This document shows, piece after piece, positions 25,716 to 44,452 of a stretch of DNA of 64,000 nt (positions within the stretch are counted from its first letter, which is position 1; each line of letters begins with the position of its first letter). The stretch spans positions 53,630,001 through 53,694,000 of the forward strand of contig NC_043013.1 in the NCBI RefSeq assembly GCF_006345805.1, in the 5' to 3' direction. A program made the position numbers and the translations under genes. The notes below the pieces were generated by a model that was not told the DNA's origin, did not search any database, and was given only the letters and a program-made list of their open reading frames with translations. This DNA is from Octopus sinensis. Taxonomy: Eukaryota.

Positions 25716-27282
25716 TTGTTAATCACTTTGCAAGTGGGTGGGGGTTATAGTCTTTCAAGGAGACTAGATATTATTTCCAGAAAATCAGGGGTAAATAAAG
25801 TCGGGACGTGGTGACAATAGAAATAAAATGGAGACAAACCAAGGATAAAATCAGTGGAGAGAAATTTTCAATGAGGAAGTATTGAATTAGAATCGATGGA
25901 GGAATCCACACTCTTGGGGTCTCTAATCAATGAATATGGAACATGTCAAGCTGATAAATATACCTTAACGTACTTACATTTATGTATGTGCACACAAGCA
26001 TATATATTTACATGGGCGCATATATGTCTGTATATACGTATAAATGTGTGTGTGCATTTTTATACGTATATTTACATGTACACATGTGTGTGTGTGTGTT
26101 TGCCAGTTTCTCTGTGATTTTGCATGCTCGTAACGTGTGTTGTGTGTATATGTTTGCAACTGTAAGCGATGCTTATTTTCTCCGCGTGTGCATGTGCCAA
26201 CGTTACTGTATCATTTGTGGTGAATACTTAAACATAACGAATTAAAATAGCCATATACGTACACAACACTCACGCACACATATATACATCGATATTCACA
26301 CAGACACACACTCAGACACACTACACACGCACACAAACTTGCACACATATCTACGCAACTACGACATTCATACATATTCGTAATCGATAGAATGCAGTCC
26401 ATTTTTTCTACTCGATGTCTTTCATTAAACGAACCTGTGGTACTCTACCAGTTCTAAAGCTTCCATGCTGAAAAAGAGCAAGTTCTTTGTCGATGCATGT
26501 AGTTAACCCTTACTTAATCTAATTAGATGTCTAAGTAGTCAATCCACTTCGTTTAGTTGGATAATTGTACGAAAGAAATATATGTTCCGCTGTCGTCTGC
26601 CAGCAATTGCTTCGTTACGTCAATGCTGTTTTGTTTGTTCGCTGTTAAAGCGAACGTTGGTGCGGTTCGTAATTGCTTGCGAGTTTTGCTTCATCAATCA
26701 GCAAAGATGGAAGGACTTCCCTTGTAGCTAATACACTATTGTTTGAAAAGCTGAATGTTTAAATGTTTAAAGCTACCCCCACCTCAATCTTTTCGGTCAG
26801 CTCCTCTTTCAATGTCAGTTAAAATAACTTAATGGAATCAATTGTCTTCATTGTTACGGCATATACGCATACCAGAAGATGTCTATCATTTCCGTATTAG
26901 ATAACAAAATATCTATCTATCAGAGAGAGGGAGAGAGAGAGAGAGAAAGAAAGAAAGAAAGAGAGTGAGAGAGAAAATGGAATTCATGATATTTTATTAA
27001 TCACTACGATCCTTTCGACACATTATTCATTGGTCCCTCGTGGGTGCGATGCTTTACGAATAGTTCGGTGCATCATTTGGTACAGTTGTATATCATCAGG
27101 TGACTTGTCAAATGGTACCTTCTTTTTTAATCTCCGTTGCACTTATTTCGTTTAGAATTCGTTCCTCTAGAGAAAGAATAGATGAGGAGCAAAAATATGG
27201 AGAGGGGGAGGAGAAAGATGGAGAGAGAGAAAGAGAGAGAGAAGGAGAGAAAGAAAAGTAACACAGAAAACGTAATCACCAT

Positions 27283-30200
27283 TTATGCTTTGTATAATGC
27301 TTATATATTTATATTTATGCTTTATATAATGATTATATATTTATATTTATGCTTTATATAATGCTTATATATTTATATTTATGCTTTATATAATGCTTGT
27401 ATATTTATATTTATGTTTTATATAATGTTTATATATTTATGATTTATATAATGCTTATATATTTATATTTATGCTTTATATAATGCTTATATATTTATAT
27501 TTATGCTTTATATAATGTTTATATATATATATTTATGCTATATATAATGCTTATATATTTATATTTATGCTTTATATAATGCTCATATATTTATATTTAT
27601 GCTTTATATAATGCTTATATATTTATGCTTTATATAATGCTTATATATTTATGCTTTATATAATGCTTATATATTTATATTTATGCTTTATATAATGCTT
27701 GTATATTTATATTTATGTTTTATATAATGTTTATATATTTATGATTTATATAATGCTTATATATTTATATTTATGCTTTATATAATGCTTATATATTTAT
27801 ATTTATGCTTTATATAATGCTTATATATTTATATTTATGCTTTATATAATGCTCATATATTTATATTTATGCTTTATATAATGCTTATATATTTATGCTT
27901 TATATAATGCTTATATATTTATGCTTTATATAATGCTTATATATTTATGCTTTATATAATGCTTATATATTTATGCTTTATATAATGCTTATATATTTAT
28001 ATTTATGCTTTATATAATGCTTATATATTTATGCTTTATATAATGCTTATATATTTATATTTATGCTTTATATAATGCTTATATATTTATATTTATGCTT
28101 TATATAATGCTCATATATTTATGCTTTATATAATGCTCATATATTTATGCTTTATATAATGCTTATATATTTATGCTTTATATAATGCTTATATATTTAT
28201 ATTTATGCTTTATATAATGCTTATATATTTATATTTATGCTTTATATAATGCTCATATATTTATGCTTTATATAATGCTCATATATTTATGCTTTATATA
28301 ATGCTCATATATTTATGCTTTATATAATGCTTATATATTTATATTTATGCTTTATATAATGCTTATATATTTATATTTATGCTTTATATAATGCTTATAT
28401 ATTTATATTTATGATTTATATAATGCTCATATATTTATGCTTTATATAATGCTCATATATTTATGCTTTATATAATGCTTATATATTTATGCTTTATATA
28501 ATGCTTATATATTTATATTTATGCTTTATATAATGCTCATATATTTATGCTTTATATAATGCTCATATATTTATGCTTTATATAATGCTCATATATTTAT
28601 GCTTTATATAATGCTTATATATTTATATTTATGCTTTATATAATGCTTATATATTTATATTTATGCTTTATATAATGCTTATATATTTATGCTTTATATA
28701 ATGCTTATATATTTATATTTATGCTTTATATAATGCTTATATATTTATATTTATGCTTTATATAATGCTCATATATTTATGCTTTATATAATGCTTATAT
28801 ATTTATGCTTTATATAATGCTTATATATTTATATTTATGCTTTATATAATGCTTATATATTTATATTTATGCTTTATAAAATGCTCATATATTTATGCTT
28901 TATATAATGCTCATATATTTATGCTTTATATAATGCTTATATATTTATATTTATGCTTTATATAATGCTCATATATTTATATTTATGCTTTATATAATGC
29001 TTATATATTTATGATTTATATAATGCTTATATATTTATGCTTTATATAATGCTTATATATTTATGCTTTATATAATGCTTATATATTTATGCTTTATATA
29101 ATGCTTATATATTTATATTTATGCTTTATATAATGCTTATATATTAATGCTTTATATAATGCTTATATATTTATATTTATGCTTTATATAATACTTATAT
29201 ATTTATATTTATGCTTTATATAATGCTCATATATTTATGCTTTATATAATGCTCATATATTTATGCTTTATATAATGCTTATATATTTATGCTTTATATA
29301 ATGCTTCTATATTTATATTTATGCTTTATATAATGCTTATATATTTATATTTATGCTTTATATAATGCTCATATATTTATGCTTTATATAATGCTCATAT
29401 ATTTATGCTTTATATAATGCTCATATATTTATGCTTTATATAATGCATATATATTTATATTTATGCTTTATATAAAGCTTATATATTTATATTTATGCTT
29501 TATATAATGCTTATATATTTATGCTTTATATAATGCTTATATATTTATATTTATGCTTTATATAATGCTTATATATTTATATTTATGCTTTATATAATGC
29601 TCATATATTTATGCTTTATATAATGCTCATATATTTATGCTTTATATAATGCTTATATATTTATGCTTTATATAATGCTTATATATTTATATTTATGCTT
29701 TATATAATGCTTATATATTTATATTTATGCTTTATATAATGCTCATATATTTATGCTTTATATAATGCTCATATATTTATGCTTTATATAATGCTTATAT
29801 ATTTATGCTTTATATAATGCTTATATATTTATGCTTTATATAATGCATATATTTATATTTATGCGTTATATAATGCTTATATATTTATATTTATGCTTTA
29901 TATAATGCTTATATATTTATATTTATGCTTTATATAATGCTCATATATTTATGCTTTATATAATGCTCATATATTTATGCTTTATATAATGCTTATATAT
30001 TTATATTTATGCTTTATATAATGCTTATATATTTATATTTATGCTTTATATAATGCTTATATATTTATGCTTTATATAATGCTTATATATTCATATTCAT
30101 GCTTTATATAATGCTTATATATTTATATTTATGCTTTATATAATGCTTAAATATTTATGCTTTATATAATGCTTATATATTCATATTTATGCTTTATATA

Positions 30201-33200
30201 ATGCTTATATATTTATATTTATGCTTTATATAATGCTTATATATTTATGCTTTATATAATGCTTATATATTCATATTCATGCTTTATATAATGCTTATAT
30301 ATTTATATTTATGCTTTATATAATGCTTAAATATTTATGCTTTATATAATGCTTATTATTCATATTTATGCTTTATATAATGCTTATATATTTATATTTA
30401 TGCTTTATATAATGCTTATATATTTATAATTATGCTTTATATAATGCTCATATATTTATATTTATGCTTCATATAATGCTTATATATTCATATTTATGCT
30501 TTATATAATGCTTATATATTTATATTTATGCTTTATATAATGCTTATATATTCATATTTATGCTTTATATAATGCTTATATATTTATATTTATGCTTTAT
30601 ATAATGCTTATATATTTATGCTTTATATAATGCTTATATATTTATGCTTTATATAATGCTTATATATTTATGCTTTATGTAATGCTTATACATTTATGCT
30701 TTATATAATGCTTATATATTTATATTTATGCTTTATATAATGCTTATATATTTATGCTTTATATAATGCTCATATATTTATGCTTTATATAATGCTTATA
30801 TATTTATATTTATGCTTTATATAGTGGTTATATATTATGCTTTATATAATGCTTATATATTTATATTTATGCTTTATATAATGCTTATATATTTATATTT
30901 ATGCTTTATATAATGCTTATATATTTATATTTATGCTTTATATAATGCTTATATATTTATATTTATGCTTTATATAATGCTTATATATTTATGCTTTATA
31001 TAATGCATATATTTATATTTATGCGTTATATAATGCTTATATATTTATATTTATGCTTATATAATGCTTATATATTTATATTTAGGCTTTATATAATGCT
31101 TATATATTTTATATTTATGCTTTATATAATGCTTATATATATTTATATTTATGCTTTATATAATGCTTATATATTTATATTTATGCTTTATATAATGCTT
31201 ATATATTATTTATGCTTTATATAATGCTTATATATTTATATTTATGCTTTATAATGCTTATATATTTATGCTTTATATATGCTTATATATTTATGCTTTA
31301 TATAATGCTTATATATTTATATTTATGCTTTATATAATGCTTATATATTTATATTTATGCTTTATATATGCTTATATATTATATTTATGCTTTATATAAT
31401 GCTTATATATTTATATTTATGCTTATATAATGCTATATATTTATATTCATGCTTTATATAATGCTTATATATTTATATTTATGCTTTATATAATGCTTAT
31501 ATATTTATGCTTTATATAATGCTTATATATTTATATTTATGCTTTATATAATGCTTATATATTTATATTTATGCTTTATATAATGTTTATATATTTATGC
31601 TTTATATAATGCTTATATATTTATGCTTTATATAATGCTTATATATTTATATTTATGCTTTATATAATGCTTATATATTTATATTTATGCTATATATAAT
31701 GCTTATATATTTATATTTATGCTTTATATAATGCTTATATATTTATATTTATGCTTATATAATGCTTATTATTTATATTCATGCTTTATATAATGCTTAT
31801 ATTTTATATTTATGCTTTAATAATGCTTATATATTTATGCTTTATATAATGCTTATATATTTCTCTTTATGCTTTATATAATGCTTATATATTTATATTA
31901 TGCTTTATATAATGTTTATATATTATGCTTTATATAATGCTTATATATTTATGCTTTATATAATGCTTATATATTTATATTTTATGCTTTATATAATGCT
32001 TATATATTTATATTTATGCTTTATATAATGCTTATATATTTATATTCATGCTTTATATAATGCTTATATATTTATATTTATGCTTTATATAATGCTCATA
32101 TATTTATGCTTTATATAATGCTCATATATTTATGCTTTATATAATGCTTATATATTTATGCTTTATATAATGCTTATATATTTATATTTATGCTTTATAT
32201 AATGCTTATATATTTATATTTATGCTTTATATAATGCTCATATATTTATGCTTTATATAATGCTCATATTTATGCTTTATATAATGCTTATATATTTATG
32301 CTTTATATAATGCTTATATATTTATGCTTTATATAATGCATATATTTATATTTATGCGTTATATAATGCTTATATATTTATATTTATGCTTTATATAATG
32401 CTTATATATTTATATTTATGCTTTATATAATGCTCATATATTTTGCTTTATATAATGCTCATATATTTATGCTTTATATAATGCTTATATATTTATATTT
32501 ATGCTTTATATAATGCTTATATATTTATATTTATGCTTTATATAATTATATATTTATGCTTTATATAATGCTTATATATTTCATATTCATGCTTTATATA
32601 ATGCTTATATATTTATATTTATGCTTTATATAATGCTTAAATATTTTATGCTTTATATAATGCTTATATATTCATATTTATGCTTTATATATGCTTATAT
32701 ATTTATATTTATGCTTTATATAATGCTTATATATTTATATTTGCTTTATATAATGCTCATATATTTATTTATGCTTCATATAATGCTTATATATTCATAT
32801 TTATGCTTTATATATGCTTATATATTTATATTTATGCTTTATATAATGCTTATATATTCATATTTATGCTTTATATAATGCTATATATTTATATTTTATG
32901 CTTTATATAATGCTTATATATTTATGCTTTATGTAATGCTTATACATTTATGCTTTATATAATGCTTATATATTTATATTTATGCTTTATATAATGCTTA
33001 TATATTTATGCTTTATATAATGCTCATATATTTATGCTTTATATAATGCTTATATATTTATATTTATGCTTTATATAGTGGTTATATATTATGCTTTATA
33101 TAATGCTTATATATTTATATTTATGCTTTATATAATGCTTATATATTTATATTTATGCTTTATATAATGCTTATATATTTATATTTATGCTTTATATAAT

Positions 33201-36200
33201 GCTTATATATTTATATTTATGCTTTATATAATGCTTATATATTTATGCTTTATATAATGCATATATTTATATTTATGCGTTATATAATGCTTATATATTT
33301 ATATTTATGCTTTATATAATGCTTATATATTTATATTTAGGCTTTATATAATGCTTATATATTTATATTTATGCTTTATATAATGCTTATATATATTTAT
33401 ATTTATGCTTTATATAATGCTTATATATTTATATTTATGCTTTATATAATGCTTATATATTTATATTTATGCTTTATATAATGCTTATATATTTATATTT
33501 ATGCTTTATATAATGTTTATACATTTATGCTTTATATAATGCTTATATATTTATGCTTTATATAATGCTTATATATTTATATTTATGCTTTATATAATGC
33601 TTATATATTTATATTTATGCTTTATAATGCTTATATATTATATTTATGCTTTATATAATGCTTATATATTTATATTTATGCTTTATATAATGCTTATATA
33701 TTTATATCATGCTATATAATGCTTATATATTTATATTTATGCTTTATATAATGCTTATATATTTATGCTTTATATAATGCTTATGTATTTATATTTATGC
33801 TTTATATAATGCTTATATATTATATTTATGCTTTATATAATGTTTTATAATTATGCTTTATATAATGCTTATATATTTATGCTTTATATAATGCTTATAT
33901 ATTTATATTTATGCTTTATATAATGCTTATATATTATATTTATGCTATATATAATGCTTATATATTTATATTTATGCTTTATATAATGCTTATTATATTT
34001 ATATTTATGCTTTAATAATGCTTATATATTTATATTCATGCTTTATATAATGCTTATATATTATATTATGCTTTATATAATGATATATTTATGCTTTATA
34101 TAATGCTTATATTTCTCTTTATGCTTTATATAATGCTTATATATTTATATTTATGCTTATATAATGTTATATATTTATGCTTTATATAATGCTTATATAT
34201 TTATGCTTTATATAATGCTTATATATTTATATTTATGCTTTATATAATGTTATATATTTATATTTATGCTTTATATAATGCTTATATATTTATATTCATG
34301 CTTTATATATGCTTATATATTATTTATGCTTTATATAATGCTCATATATTTATGCTTTATATAATGCTCATATATTTATGCTTTATATAATGCTTATATA
34401 TTTTGCTTTATATAATGCTTATATATTATATTTATGCTTTATATAATGCTTATAATTTATATTTATGCTTTATATAATGCTCATATATTTATGCTTTATA
34501 TAATGCTCATATATTTATGCTTTATATAATGCTTATATATTTATGCTTATATAATGCTTATATTTATGCTTTATATAATGCATATATTTATATTTATGCG
34601 TTATATAATGCTTATATATTTATATTTATGCTTTATATAATGCTTATATATTTATATTTATGCTTATATAATGCTCATATATTTATGCTTTATAAATGCT
34701 CATATATTTATGCTTTATATAATGCTTATATTTATATTTATGCTTTATAATGCTTATATATTTATTTTATGCTTTATATAATGCTTATATATTTATGCTT
34801 TATATAATGCTTATATATTCATATTCATGCTTTATATAATGCTTATATATTTATATTTATGCTTTATATAATGCTTAAATATTTATGCTTTATATAATGC
34901 TTATATATTCATATTTATGCTTTATATAATGCTTATATATTTATATTTATGCTTTATATAATGCTTATATATTTATAATTATGCTTTATATAATGCTCAT
35001 ATATTTATATTTATGCTTCATATAATGCTTATATATTCATATTTATGCTTTATATAATGCTTATATATTTATATTTATGCTTTATATAATGCTTATATAT
35101 TCATATTTATGCTTTATATAATGCTTATATATTTATATTTATGCTTATATAATGCTATATATTTATGCTTTATGTAATGCTTATACATTTATGCTTTTAT
35201 AATCTTATATATTTATATTTATGCTTTATATAATGCTTATATATTTATGCTTTATATAATGCTCATATATTTATGCTTTATATAATGCTTATATATTTAT
35301 ATTATGCTTTATATAGTGGTTATATATTATGCTTTATATAATGCTTATATATTTATATTATGCTTTATATAATGCTTATATAATTATATTTATGCTTTAT
35401 ATAATGCTATATATTTATATTTATGCTTTATATAATGCTTATATATTATATTTATGCTTTATATAATGCTTATAATTATGCTTTATATAATGCATATATT
35501 TTATTTATGCGTTATATAATGCTTATATATTTATATTATGCTTTATATAATGCTTATATATTTATATTTAGGCTTTATATAATGCTTATATATTTATATT
35601 TATGCTTTATATAATGCTTATATATTTATATTTATGCTTTATATAATGCTTATATATTTATATTTATGCTTTATATAATGCTTATATATTTATATTTATG
35701 CTTTATATAATGCTTATATATTTATATTATGCTTTATATAATGTTTATACATTATGCTTTATATAATGCTTATATATTATGCTTTATATAATGCTTATAT
35801 ATATTATATTTATGCTTTATATATGCTATATATTTATATTTATGCTTTATATAATGCTTATATATTTATATTTATGCTTATATAATGCTATATATTTATA
35901 TTTATGCTTTATATAATGCTTATATATTATATTCATGCTTTATATAATGCTTATATATTTATATTATGCTTTATATAATGCTTATATATTTATGCTTTAT
36001 ATAATGCTTATATATTTATATTATGCTTATATAATGCTATATATTTATATTTATGCTTTATATAATGTTTATATATTTTATTTATATAATGCTTATATAT
36101 TATGCTTTATATAATGCTTATATATTTATATTTATGCTTTATATAATGCTTATATATTTATATTTATGCTATATATAATGCTTATATATTTATATTTATG

Positions 36201-38170
36201 CTTTATATAATGCTTATATATTTATATTTATGCTTTATATAATGCTTATATATTTATATTCATGCTTTATATAATGCTTATATATTTATATTTATGCTTT
36301 ATATAATGCTTATATATTTATGCTTTATATAATGCTTATATATTTCTCTTTATGCTTTATATAATGCTTATATATTTATATTTATGCTTTATATAATGTT
36401 TATATATTTATGCTTTATATAATGCTTATATATTTATGCTTTATATAATGCTTATATATTTATATTTATGCTTTATATAATGCTTATATATTTATATTTA
36501 TGCTTTATATAATGCTTATATATTTATATTCATGCTTTATATAATGCTTATATATTTATATTTATGCTTTATATAATGCTTATATATTTATGCTTTATAT
36601 AATGCTTATATATTTATATTTATGCTTTATATACTGCTTATATATTTATATTTTTGCTTTATATAATGTTTATATATTTATGCTTTATATAATGCTTATA
36701 TATTTATGCTTTATATAATGCTTATATATTTATGTTTATGCTTTATATAATGCTTATATATTTATATTTATGCTTTATATAATGTTTATATATTTATGCT
36801 TTATATAATGCTTTTATATTTATGCTTTATATAATGCTTATATATTTATATTTATGCTTTATATAATGCTTATATATTTATATTTATGCTTTATATAATG
36901 CTTATATATTTATATTTATGCTTTATATAATGCTTATATATTTATATTTATGCTATATATAATGCTTATATATTTATATTCATGCTTTATATAATGCTTA
37001 TATATTTATATTTATGCTTTATATAATGCTTATATATTTATGCTTTATATAATGCTTATATATTTATGCTTTATATAATGCTTATATATTTATATTTATG
37101 CTTTATACAATGCTTATATATTTATATTTATGCTTTATATAATGCTTATATATTTATGCTTTATATAATGCTTATATATTTATATTTATGCTTTATATAA
37201 TGCTTATATATTTATATTGATGCTTTATATAATGCTTATATATTTATATTTATGCTTTATATAATGCTTATATATTTATATTTATGCTTTATATAATGCT
37301 TATATATTTATGCTTTATATAATGCTTATATATTTATATTTAGGCTTTATATAATGCTTATATATTTATATTTATGCTTTATATAATGCTTATATATTTA
37401 TATTTATGCTTTATATAATGTTTATATATTTATGCTTTATATAATGCTTATATATTTATGCTTTATATAATGCTTATATATTTATATTTATGCTTTATAT
37501 AATGCTTATATATTTATATTTATGCTTTATATAATGCTTATATATTTATATTTATGCTTTATATAATGCTTATATATTTATATTTATGCTTTATATAATG
37601 CTTATATATTTATATTCATGCTTTATATAATGCTTATATATTTATATTTATGCTTTATATAATGCTTATATATTTATGCTTTATATAATGCTTATATATT
37701 TATGCTTTATATAATGCTTATATATTTATATTTATGCTTTATATAATGCTTATATATTTATATTTATGCTTTATATAATGCTTATATATTTATATTTATG
37801 CTTTATATAATGCTTATATATTTATATTTATGCTTTATATAATGCTTATATATTTATATTTATGCTTTATATAATGCTTATATATTTATATTTATGCTTT
37901 ATATAATGCTTATATATTTATATTTATGCTTTAATAATGCTTATATATTTATATTTATGCTTTATATAATGCTTATATATTTATATTTATGCTTTATAAT
38001 GCTTATATATTTATATTTATGCTTTATATAATGCTTATATATTTATATTTATGCTTTATATAATGCTTATATATTTATATTTATGCTTTATATAATGCTT
38101 TTATATTTATATTTATACTTTATATAATGCTTATATATTTATATTTATGCTTTATATAATGCTTATATAT
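27283..38170. repeat. 10.9-kb AT-rich minisatellite of 26-bp (TTATGCTTTATATAATGCTTATATAT) and 32-bp (plus TTATAT) units
   Basis: Continuous tandem array; rare variants recur about every 2.24 kb. Confidence 0.98.
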
Positions 38171-41932: not shown

Positions 41933-42805
41933 CATGCACATACATATATGTATGTATATAAATGGATGAATGAATTATCCTTTGTTTACCGTTAACATGG
42001 AAAATTCAATAAACAGTTACCAGGGTAGCAAAGTTCACGCACGTAACAAGGATGTAGCGACCTAATCAAAGGTAGAACTCCGGGTTAATGTGCAGTAATT
42101 TGTGTAGTATAAGAAATAAATGGAGCTGAACGCAGACGTTATTAAAATTCTTTTACTGTTGTCCCCATTTATTTACTTATATATATATATATCTATATAT
42201 ATATATATATTATATATATATATATATAGATAGAGGAGAGAGAGAGAGAGAGAGATACGGGTGTGTGTGATTGTGTATAGAAGAATGTATTTATATCATG
42301 CATTAAATTATGCAATCTTCAGGTTCATGTAGTAGTGGTGACAGTCATGCTTCACAATTTTTGACTGTCATATATATATATATAATATATATATATATAT
42401 GAGTGTGTGAGAGAGAGGAAAAAGAGAGAAAGAAACAGAGATAAAATAACAGTGAAAAGTAATGAAATTGTGAAAAAAAGACAGAAAGGAAGAAAGGTGT
42501 TTTAAAGGAGAAGAAGACATCACAAACTGTACAATTTTGACGCGTCGTCAGATGTGTATTGTAAAGCATGATAATTTTGGTACATAGTAAATTCGGTACG
42601 TTTCATTCGAACGGTGCTCACCACCAATTGAAATTGTAAGGTGACAAGCCAGTGCACGTGGAAAACTATGAAAGACAAGGAAAATGAGGAAAAATATGGG
42701 CGTACGACGAAAACATTTTGGATGGAAGCATCCAAAGCGAAGCACAAAAGGAGACTTCTCTTTCGACAATTAATATACGCATACAGAAAGATGTTATGGT
42801 ACATC

Positions 42806-42874
<69 letters not shown>

Positions 42875-43207
42875 ATAAAATCAAAATAAGAAACAGGATA
42901 TCAAGCAGTGATACAGTACTACCGTTTCAAGCGGCTCCATTTAATTGAACAATGCAATCATTACATCAATTTAAATGCAGTGCCACCATCAGCTGCACAA
43001 ATAAATAAATAGAATTTTAACAAGTTGGACACATTAACATTCATTTTTCTGAAATACTCTGACAGAGCAAGATGGAAAAAATTCATGTTGTCACTATACA
43101 TACATACATACATACATACATGCAAACATACGTATTGGAATGGGGTTAGCGACAAACTGTTTTGGGGGACAACCAAAGGCGCAAAGACACACATACACAT
43201 ACGCGTA

Positions 43208-43246
<39 letters not shown>

Positions 43247-43332
43247 TATATATATGTATATATATATCTATATATATATATTATATATATATAATATATA
43301 TATCATATATATATACTATATATATATATATG

Positions 43333-43402
<70 letters not shown>

Positions 43403-43472
43403 ATATTATATATATATATACACGATATATATATATACTATATATATATATATCATGACTACATATAATACG

Positions 43473-43506
<34 letters not shown>

Positions 43507-43530
43507 CATATATATATAATACATATATAT

Positions 43531-43578
<48 letters not shown>

Positions 43579-43585
43579 TATATAT

Positions 43586-43616
<31 letters not shown>

Positions 43617-44312
43617 TATATGAGGATAATATCGATATTTAAGTGTCGAAATTATCAAGTGGCCAGCATGAAAGAAATACCTTACAAGGTAAAAAATTTT
43701 TAACAATTAAAAATGAGGGTGTCTAAAAGACACCAACATGCCGAATAGCAGTCGAAACACTGAAACGTGGTACTATAGTCAGTGTTTCGACTGCTATTTC
43801 GGCATGTTGGTGTCTTTTAGACACCCTCATTTTTAATTGTTAAAATTTTTTTTACCTTTGTAAGGTATTTCTTTCATGCTGGCCACTTGATAATTTCGAC
43901 ACTTAAATATCGATATTATCCTCATATATAAATTTATATAATTCGTTATTATATTCACTGCGGTGCTTATTTTAACCATATCGTACTTATGCGGTGATTT
44001 GGCGGGCGATTCAAACTGGCTGTGTCCATACGTGCATATGTATGTATGTACGGCGCTCGTATATGTAAGTATATAGTTTGCTGTGCATATATATATCTGT
44101 ATTTATGTACCCTTGATATATTCAATTGATGACGGTAAAGCTTATCTAAAGCAGAACCAGAAATCCTTGGATCTTGAATTATTCAATAATTTTTGCTTGT
44201 ATGTTTTGTCCCTCCGCTTTACCTCATGGTGCGATATGAACATTTAACGTGGTACTATAGTCAGTGTTTCGACTGCTATTTCGGCATGTTGGTGTCTTTT
44301 AGACACCCTCAT

Positions 44313-44320
<8 letters not shown>
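43617..44320 (+). mobile_element. Hammerhead-bearing pLTR or retrozyme-like element: inverted arm, 482-bp unit, 75-bp terminal direct repeat
   Basis: Palindrome 43617-43763/43779-43928; direct repeat 43764-43838 = 44246-44320; (TA)n on both sides. Confidence 0.85.
44121..44178 (+). ncRNA. Type I hammerhead ribozyme motif (U3 variant)
   Basis: ttcaa-TTGATGA-[cggtaaagcttatctaaagcagaacca]-GAAA-TCCTTGGA-TC-ttgaa. Stem III ATCC/GGAT, AUC triplet, predicted cut after 44173. Confidence 0.8.
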
Positions 44321-44351
<31 letters not shown>

Positions 44352-44452
44352 TACGCGTATGTGTATGTGTGAGTCTTTGCGCCTTTGGTTGTCCCCAACA
44401 CTGTTTGTCGCTAACCCAATTCCAGCCTTTTTACTCTAATTATAACCTCTAA

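Follow-up and report, generated by a model that had tools for sequence, protein, structure and literature searches.

The insertion at positions 43617-44320 of the analysed region, a stretch of 64,000 nucleotides of the Octopus sinensis genome that we refer to as the window, is likely a young copy of a non-autonomous Penelope passenger, a non-LTR retrozyme, which was placed by a probable Neptune-type enzyme through twin priming of a cut (TA)n run on one RNA that was likely circular. Two-armed copies of this family almost always have their ends at two different fixed points, an arrangement suggestive of one RNA being copied onto both sides of the break.

Anatomy of the insertion

The first-pass annotation had described a near-perfect palindrome with a 15-nt loop and a unit whose start recurs exactly at its end, and both descriptions are borne out by alignment. 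The segment 43617-43763 is the reverse complement of 43779-43928, forming a 147/150-bp inverted pair that differs by one substitution and three single-base gaps, all of them losses in the left arm, with 43764-43778 as the 15-nt loop. The segments 43764-43838 and 44246-44320 are identical at 75/75 positions and define a period of 482. The insert sits within a (TA)n run and six-frame translation detects no plausible protein in any of its frames. In another part of the window, at 27281-38170, we find an AT-rich 32-bp satellite of about 366 copies. The features of the locus are:

43617-43763, minus strand: inverted arm, unit positions 16-165; outer end at family site B; putative second cDNA
43764-44320, plus strand: long arm, 557 nt or 1.16 units; outer end at site A; 5' end a variable truncation point
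43764-44245, plus strand: one 482-nt period in arbitrary phase, without ORF
43839-43940, plus strand: 'tail' of about 90-100 nt separating site A from site B
44120-44179, plus strand: type I hammerhead motif with U3-G8 core; predicted cut 44173/44174
44246-44320, plus strand: second pass over unit positions 1-75, stopping at site A against (TA)n
43206-43616, no strand: degenerate (TA)n target run, left
44321-44353, no strand: (TA)n target run, right
43136-43241, no strand: left arm of a host inverted repeat; partner 44318-44424

A young and dispersed family

The 482-nt unit belongs to a dispersed ORF-less family in the 2.7 Gb, microsatellite-rich genome of Octopus sinensis. A 28-mer of the unit has 278 exact genome matches, compared to 0 for its reversed control, and at least 109 matches at E≤0.001 were obtained from 40 scored out of 1850 genome candidates; the recurrence of the unit is not due to chance. 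The first 100 matches of the 28-mer correspond to about 66 insertions, which by extrapolation suggests around 180 young insertions. A degenerate hammerhead pattern retrieves 463 motifs in the genome, including those of older subfamilies that are 76-90% identical to the young unit. The young insertions diverge by a median of 2.2% in pairwise substitutions, in line with the recent event postulated initially, and among 404 scored sites there are 3 at which the window copy disagrees with the majority of the column.

We have examined 121 loci, of which 66 were taken in chromosome order from the 28-mer matches and are in this respect unbiased, 20 were best or dimer hits and 35 originated from tail-motif and best-hit lists; one of the examined loci gave no hit. 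A pair of two A arms could be revealed by the chromosome-order set and not by the 35 loci of the last set.

Fixed outer ends and the pairing of arms

With arms stopping outside both classes set aside, the outer ends at the 121 loci define two points of the unit and nearly always abut (TA)n. Site A is located at unit position 75, where 73 arms end exactly, and site B at about 165-177, where around 105 arms end, 94 of them scored exactly at 177. The blurred position of site B is a consequence of the TA-like sequence of the last 12 nt of the tail. Inner ends, in contrast, are scattered along the unit. The prospect that the unit would be single-copy and without permuted relatives is thus dismissed by the 278 exact matches and the scattered inner ends, and of the permuted ends expected in other copies, only the inner ones vary in this way, those on the outside falling at A or B.

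The two classes combine in a defined manner. In the unbiased set of 66 insertions, all 39/39 classifiable head-to-head junctions join an A to a B arm, and the same holds for 70/71 overall, a number that includes one junction counted twice via a duplicated locus (L299). The sole B+B pair among the 71 is a complex junction, and 9 further head-to-head junctions with an unclassifiable arm stand outside this number. In older subfamilies, A+B pairs were read by eye at at least 15 of 26 loci. This arrangement is the signature of an 'inverted copy plus tail' and it corroborates the proposed resemblance of the inverted arm to Penelope insertions. Equally supported is reverse transcription over more than the length of the 482-nt unit, since arms exceeding one unit account for 25/106 in the unbiased and 60/195 in the entire set, the longest comprising 1,370 nt or 2.8 units.

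With its left arm ending at B and its right arm at A, the window copy conforms to this pattern and the apparent monomer with terminal repeat is a 557-nt arm that was arbitrarily truncated. Position 43764 is the 5' truncation point, and the initial view of a 'monomer start' and a '75-bp terminal repeat' as designed ends has to be abandoned. In the best reading of the locus, what was called a 'fold-back' represents a second cDNA, whereas the so-called 'terminal repeat' reflects an arbitrary truncation point. Across the family, 5' truncations are mildly enriched in two parts of the unit, 451-480 and 81-100, in the vicinity of a long stem and a U-run, with 11 truncations at 461-470 compared to 4.4 expected. 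At one locus (L011:2110-2350), a TA run replaces the A-to-B tail within one arm, from either a second insertion into the TA flank of the first or a polishing error.

The hammerhead motif

On the plus strand, the motif at 44120-44179 comprises a stem I of 6 bp (44120-25/44174-79), the core TTGATGA at 44126-32, an extended stem II (44134-36/44156-58) that encloses a further hairpin and begins with a C.A mismatch, GAAA at 44160-63 and a short, near-palindromic stem III of 3 bp, with cleavage predicted after C44173. No Rfam family reaches the gathering score anywhere in the window. The textbook hammerhead core contains a C3-G8 pair. In the window copy and its clade, the equivalent positions hold U3-G8 instead of the canonical C3-G8 (or U3-A8). 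The hammerhead annotated at 44121-44178 is confirmed as a type I motif, with a non-canonical core and in a single copy. As only one hammerhead is found at this locus, a monomer could not be released by double cleavage from this copy alone. At least two complete hammerheads are present at 10 loci of the young subfamily.

The stems of the hammerhead are kept in 96.7% of cells in a comparison of 17 sequences, with double changes in two pairs. Older subfamilies contain CTGATGA or CCGATGA cores and a compensated stem II. By hand count, the first 100 of the 463 motifs divide into 29 of CT, 23 of CC and 48 of TT type, and C3-G8 is found in the 29 CT-type motifs of these 100. In a phylogeny of 31 rows rooted at midpoint, copies with a TTGATGA core form one clade with support of 98/94 and the shortest branches, and U3 is found in 97/98 segments of this youngest clade. 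The older CT and CC cores together with the young TTGATGA clade illustrate a real hammerhead lineage, whose latest expansion bears an uncompensated U3. For each of the three core types, an inactive fold is predicted in which the core pairs with the GG of stem III.

The U3-G8 pair is predicted to weaken cleavage and hence the formation of circles. This prediction is based in part on statements about the 3-8 pair in PMC3088659 and PMC11167929, and natural covariation to U3-A8 is described in PMC3088659 and PMC4209133. Since our search of the literature found no paper on the activity of U3-G8 hammerheads, the reduced activity is a prediction.

Nature of the template

Variants found in at most three insertions recur in a tandem pass of the same insertion in 30/92 and in the inverted arm in 46/168 comparisons, in contrast to a recurrence of 198/30,599 between insertions. 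Since rare variants are thus shared far more within than between insertions, the data points to one monomer-derived template per insertion event. Among variants restricted to a single insertion, sharing between passes is seen in 6 insertions and sharing between arms in 7; most are unshared (43/57 tandem and 97/115 inverted comparisons), which fits later mutation or assembly error, and gene conversion or assembly polishing could have contributed to the sharing within insertions. This sharing is compatible with a circle as well as with template jumping on a terminally redundant RNA, and does not separate the two.

The arms continue through the predicted ribozyme cut site in 98/103 passes and ends do not accumulate there (5 compared to 3.2 expected) or just upstream of the hammerhead (2 compared to 2.9). 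Folded as a circle, the monomer is 66% paired (z=-6.5 compared to 60 dinucleotide shuffles). The hammerhead is enclosed by a branched stem that the subfamilies have in common and in which 8/98 pairs show double changes, a covariation that is not an independent test since the sequences are related. A long array is absent from the assembly, where 12 exact hammerhead-dimer matches locate to 10 loci, with a maximum of three hammerheads in a row.

The alternative with the strongest claim, which we regard as possible and less plausible than a circle, is twin priming on an uncleaved linear RNA transcribed from partial-tandem copies, with several laps resulting from jumps of the reverse transcriptase or from read-through of an unassembled array, and with a weak or vestigial hammerhead. 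Such a process would account for the fixation of U3 in the youngest clade, for the lack of excess ends at the cut site and for one insertion (L026) whose passes 2-3 hold variants missing from pass 1, and it would agree with the normal insertion of hammerhead mutants by PAc, whose dominant substrate is uncleaved RNA (PMC11167929). It would leave unexplained why the stems of the hammerhead and the stem enclosing it were kept with compensatory changes across 10-18% divergence, it is at odds with an assembly that contains no long array, and related retrozymes have been demonstrated as circles (PMC7229834). On balance, we consider the template to be probably circular.

In data from sequencing archives, part of the unit is present in 20 runs, none of which is recorded as RNA. 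The junction of unit positions 482 to 1 is contained in contigs of 4/4 examined runs, presumed to be of RNA, where tandem DNA would explain it as well and where assembled contigs do not resolve circles, ends or strand, and the fold-back junction of the locus itself is not among the joints listed for these contigs, which is uninformative. In one run (X5), contig 27 carries seven clustered A>G changes on the plus strand over window positions 44106-44181, around the hammerhead, which run X15 does not show and which genomic copies hardly ever contain. This cluster, in one contig at a depth of 3.1 and under the label of another organism, gives a weak hint of possible A-to-I editing of a plus-strand transcript.

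A probable Penelope partner

The genome holds young elements with intact ORFs of 775-781 aa that combine RT and GIY-YIG domains and that we take to be of the Neptune clade from their CxxxxCxxC linker. This assignment agrees with PMC8557442. Inserted in (TA)n, they end at either of two sites that are separated by about 30-40 nt, and the A+B kind is also seen in three simple inverted pairs (L310-L312). Two very young families of this type with intact ORFs are found at L061-L068 and L243-L272, one of which, by eye, appears to bear a U3-A8 variant of the hammerhead. Window positions 42260-42370 on the minus strand, also by eye, hold an internally deleted 3' stub of the 775-aa family that includes hammerhead and tail.

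The 482-nt family shares with PLEs the inverted 5'-truncated arm with a one-sided tail and the (TA)n targets. Its tail of about 90-100 nt differs from the 30-40 nt that characterize PLEs and that are found in the two young Neptune families of this genome. Comparison of the unit to 40 PLE (GIY-YIG) loci gave no BLAST hit, and in shuffle-tested local alignments to three pLTR ends the best of 6 reached an uncorrected p=0.027, in a sample of 40 loci and three families that covers a minority of the PLE families of the genome. Searches with motifs of the tail, the older subfamily and the hammerhead led only to further ORF-less family members among the loci opened. An assignment of the family as autonomous PLE was rejected, as no ORF combining RT and GIY-YIG is present in the insert or in the family loci inspected for it.

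It is improbable that the copies are nothing more than pseudo-LTR stubs, left by 5' truncation of an autonomous Penelope-like element whose ORF escaped the sampling. Most genomic minimal hammerheads are stubs of this kind (PMC4209133) and the architecture would fit PLE insertions, but arms that extend upstream all re-enter the 482-nt unit and never an ORF, 60/195 of them over more than one unit, and the 26 loci of older subfamilies contain no PLE-like ORF.

Origin of the inverted arm

The insert is flanked by an inverted repeat of the host (43136-43241/44318-44424), which is single-copy, about 92-95% alike and centred on the TA run hit by the insert. It is probably older than the insert and separate from it. 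Its classification as a MITE was discarded upon retrieval of just three genome candidates in a search that skips very common words, and so was its origin as a product of insertion, as near-identical flanking repeats are found at 2/85 loci, including the one in the window. At L137, the flanking inverted repeat measures 139 bp with 98% identity.

The nearly concentric position of this repeat (centred at about 43780, compared to 43771 for the insert) and the restriction of all gaps to the left arm would be expected if the palindrome were a fold-back artefact of a read or of the assembly. We judge such an artefact, raised by the first-pass annotation as a threat to its own reading, to be unlikely, since its arms end at the family sites, B on the left and A on the right, as in 70/71 junctions, since any mirror of the right side hidden in the left TA run falls short of significance (p=0.06-0.10) and since the outer arms of the host repeat show their limited resemblance.

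Self-priming fold-back of one strand, as proposed for head-to-head arms in PMC3846280, is the least probable origin and for the 482-nt family largely refuted. The inner ends lie within 20 nt of each other in 9/50 A+B junctions (5.4 expected, p=0.07; p=0.14 at 40 nt and a nominal p=0.03 at 60 nt) and two junctions are located in hairpins, but inner ends are mostly far apart and a fold-back offers no reason why an arm should stop exactly where a second fixed site lies. In 20/50 cases the longer of the two arms is A, the arm lengths within an insertion are loosely related (rho 0.33) and most junctions show an overlap of 0-2 nt between arms, which excludes a simple fold-back of one cDNA and leaves the 15-nt loop largely as coincidence.

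Discussion

The features of the family, namely its targeting of TA runs, the outer ends fixed at A or B, the scattered inner ends and the A+B composition of two-armed copies, can be assembled into a mechanism of twin priming. In such a mechanism, the GIY-YIG domain would cut both strands of the target, as suggested by in vitro work on PAc (PMC11167929), and reverse transcription would start at two internal sites of the RNA, at A on one end of the break and at B on the other. The template would be continuous and derived from a monomer, being either a circle or a terminally redundant RNA on which the enzyme jumps. The two cDNAs might then join head to head via microhomology of 0-2 nt, each priming the second strand of the other, and copies with at least two hammerheads could be transcribed, cut and ligated into new circles.

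Certain observations stand against this mechanism. In vitro, PAc shows no difference between strands in the start site and mainly used uncleaved RNA (PMC11167929), the tail is about three times as long as the 30-40 nt described in PMC8557442 and PMC11167929, and comparison to 40 PLE loci and three pLTR ends brought up no autonomous element that is clearly homologous at the 3' end. We tentatively propose, as an extension that we would not yet favour, that a dimeric Penelope RT might grip a single RNA circle at both of its start sites, spaced by about 100 nt and assigned to one end of the break each, and roll round the circle from both. In this proposal, the most successful of the recent lineages would have done so after the change to U3-G8, so that self-cleavage would be gated by protein or dispensable and the hammerhead fold would mainly serve as a handle for the enzyme.

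Known systems share different parts of this behaviour. Retrozyme circles are described in coral, mussel and axolotl, with PLEs as proposed mobiliser, and the non-LTR retrozymes of animals (Cervera and de la Pena 2020, PMC7229834; Li et al., bioRxiv 10.64898/2026.07.22.740005) have in common with our family a non-coding, self-paired unit of low GC content with one type I hammerhead, tandem copies, the co-existence with PLEs and a proposed mobilisation by them. They differ in unit length (150-450 nt reported, compared to 482 nt), whereas the Octopus family consists mostly of partial copies scattered over the genome, with no more than three consecutive hammerheads and a U3-G8 core, and displays the PLE signature of inverted arm and tail directly. 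The main text of PMC7229834 does not contain the word 'inverted', nor the available text of bioRxiv 10.64898/2026.07.22.740005 the word 'tail'. The family exhibits the hammerhead fold, the missing coding capacity, ends that are not LTR-like and the highly self-paired monomer of non-LTR retrozymes. In a strict sense, the window copy fails to qualify on account of its core and its lack of a second hammerhead, both of which are found elsewhere in the family.

The EN+ PLEs Neptune and Poseidon (PMC8557442, PMC3846280, PMC11167929) show the same partial tandems, inverted 5'-truncated copy, tail on one arm, AT/TA targets and hammerhead upstream of start sites. Insertions with an inverted truncated copy and a one-sided tail of 30-40 bp are described in PMC8557442 and PMC3846280, and PMC11167929 equates the tail with the spacing of two RT start sites, with both strands being cut and extended, predicts a dimer and finds cleavage by the hammerhead to be dispensable in vitro. 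In contrast to these elements, the Octopus unit contains no ORF, has the longer tail and lacks detectable homology to the sampled Neptune pLTRs. Chlamys elements such as MRC1 (PMC8557442) are likewise non-autonomous PLE passengers with pLTRs and multicopy head-to-tail insertions; unlike the Octopus family, they belong to a clade without canonical hammerheads and have 3' sequence in common with their autonomous partners.

In the main texts of the open literature that were accessible, we found no retrozyme for which the PLE insertion fingerprint is reported, nor any study with counts of an A+B rule. Until now, the case for mobilisation of animal retrozymes by PLEs has been built on their co-occurrence and on pLTR similarity, whereas the 482-nt family of Octopus bears the Penelope insertion fingerprint itself. 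With the near-absolute A+B rule, the free lengths of the arms and the private variants shared between them, the unexplained 'inverted repeat with one-sided tail' of PLEs becomes a testable model of priming at two sites of one RNA, and the presence of a 482-nt substrate and of young, intact candidate RTs in one genome makes its testing practical.
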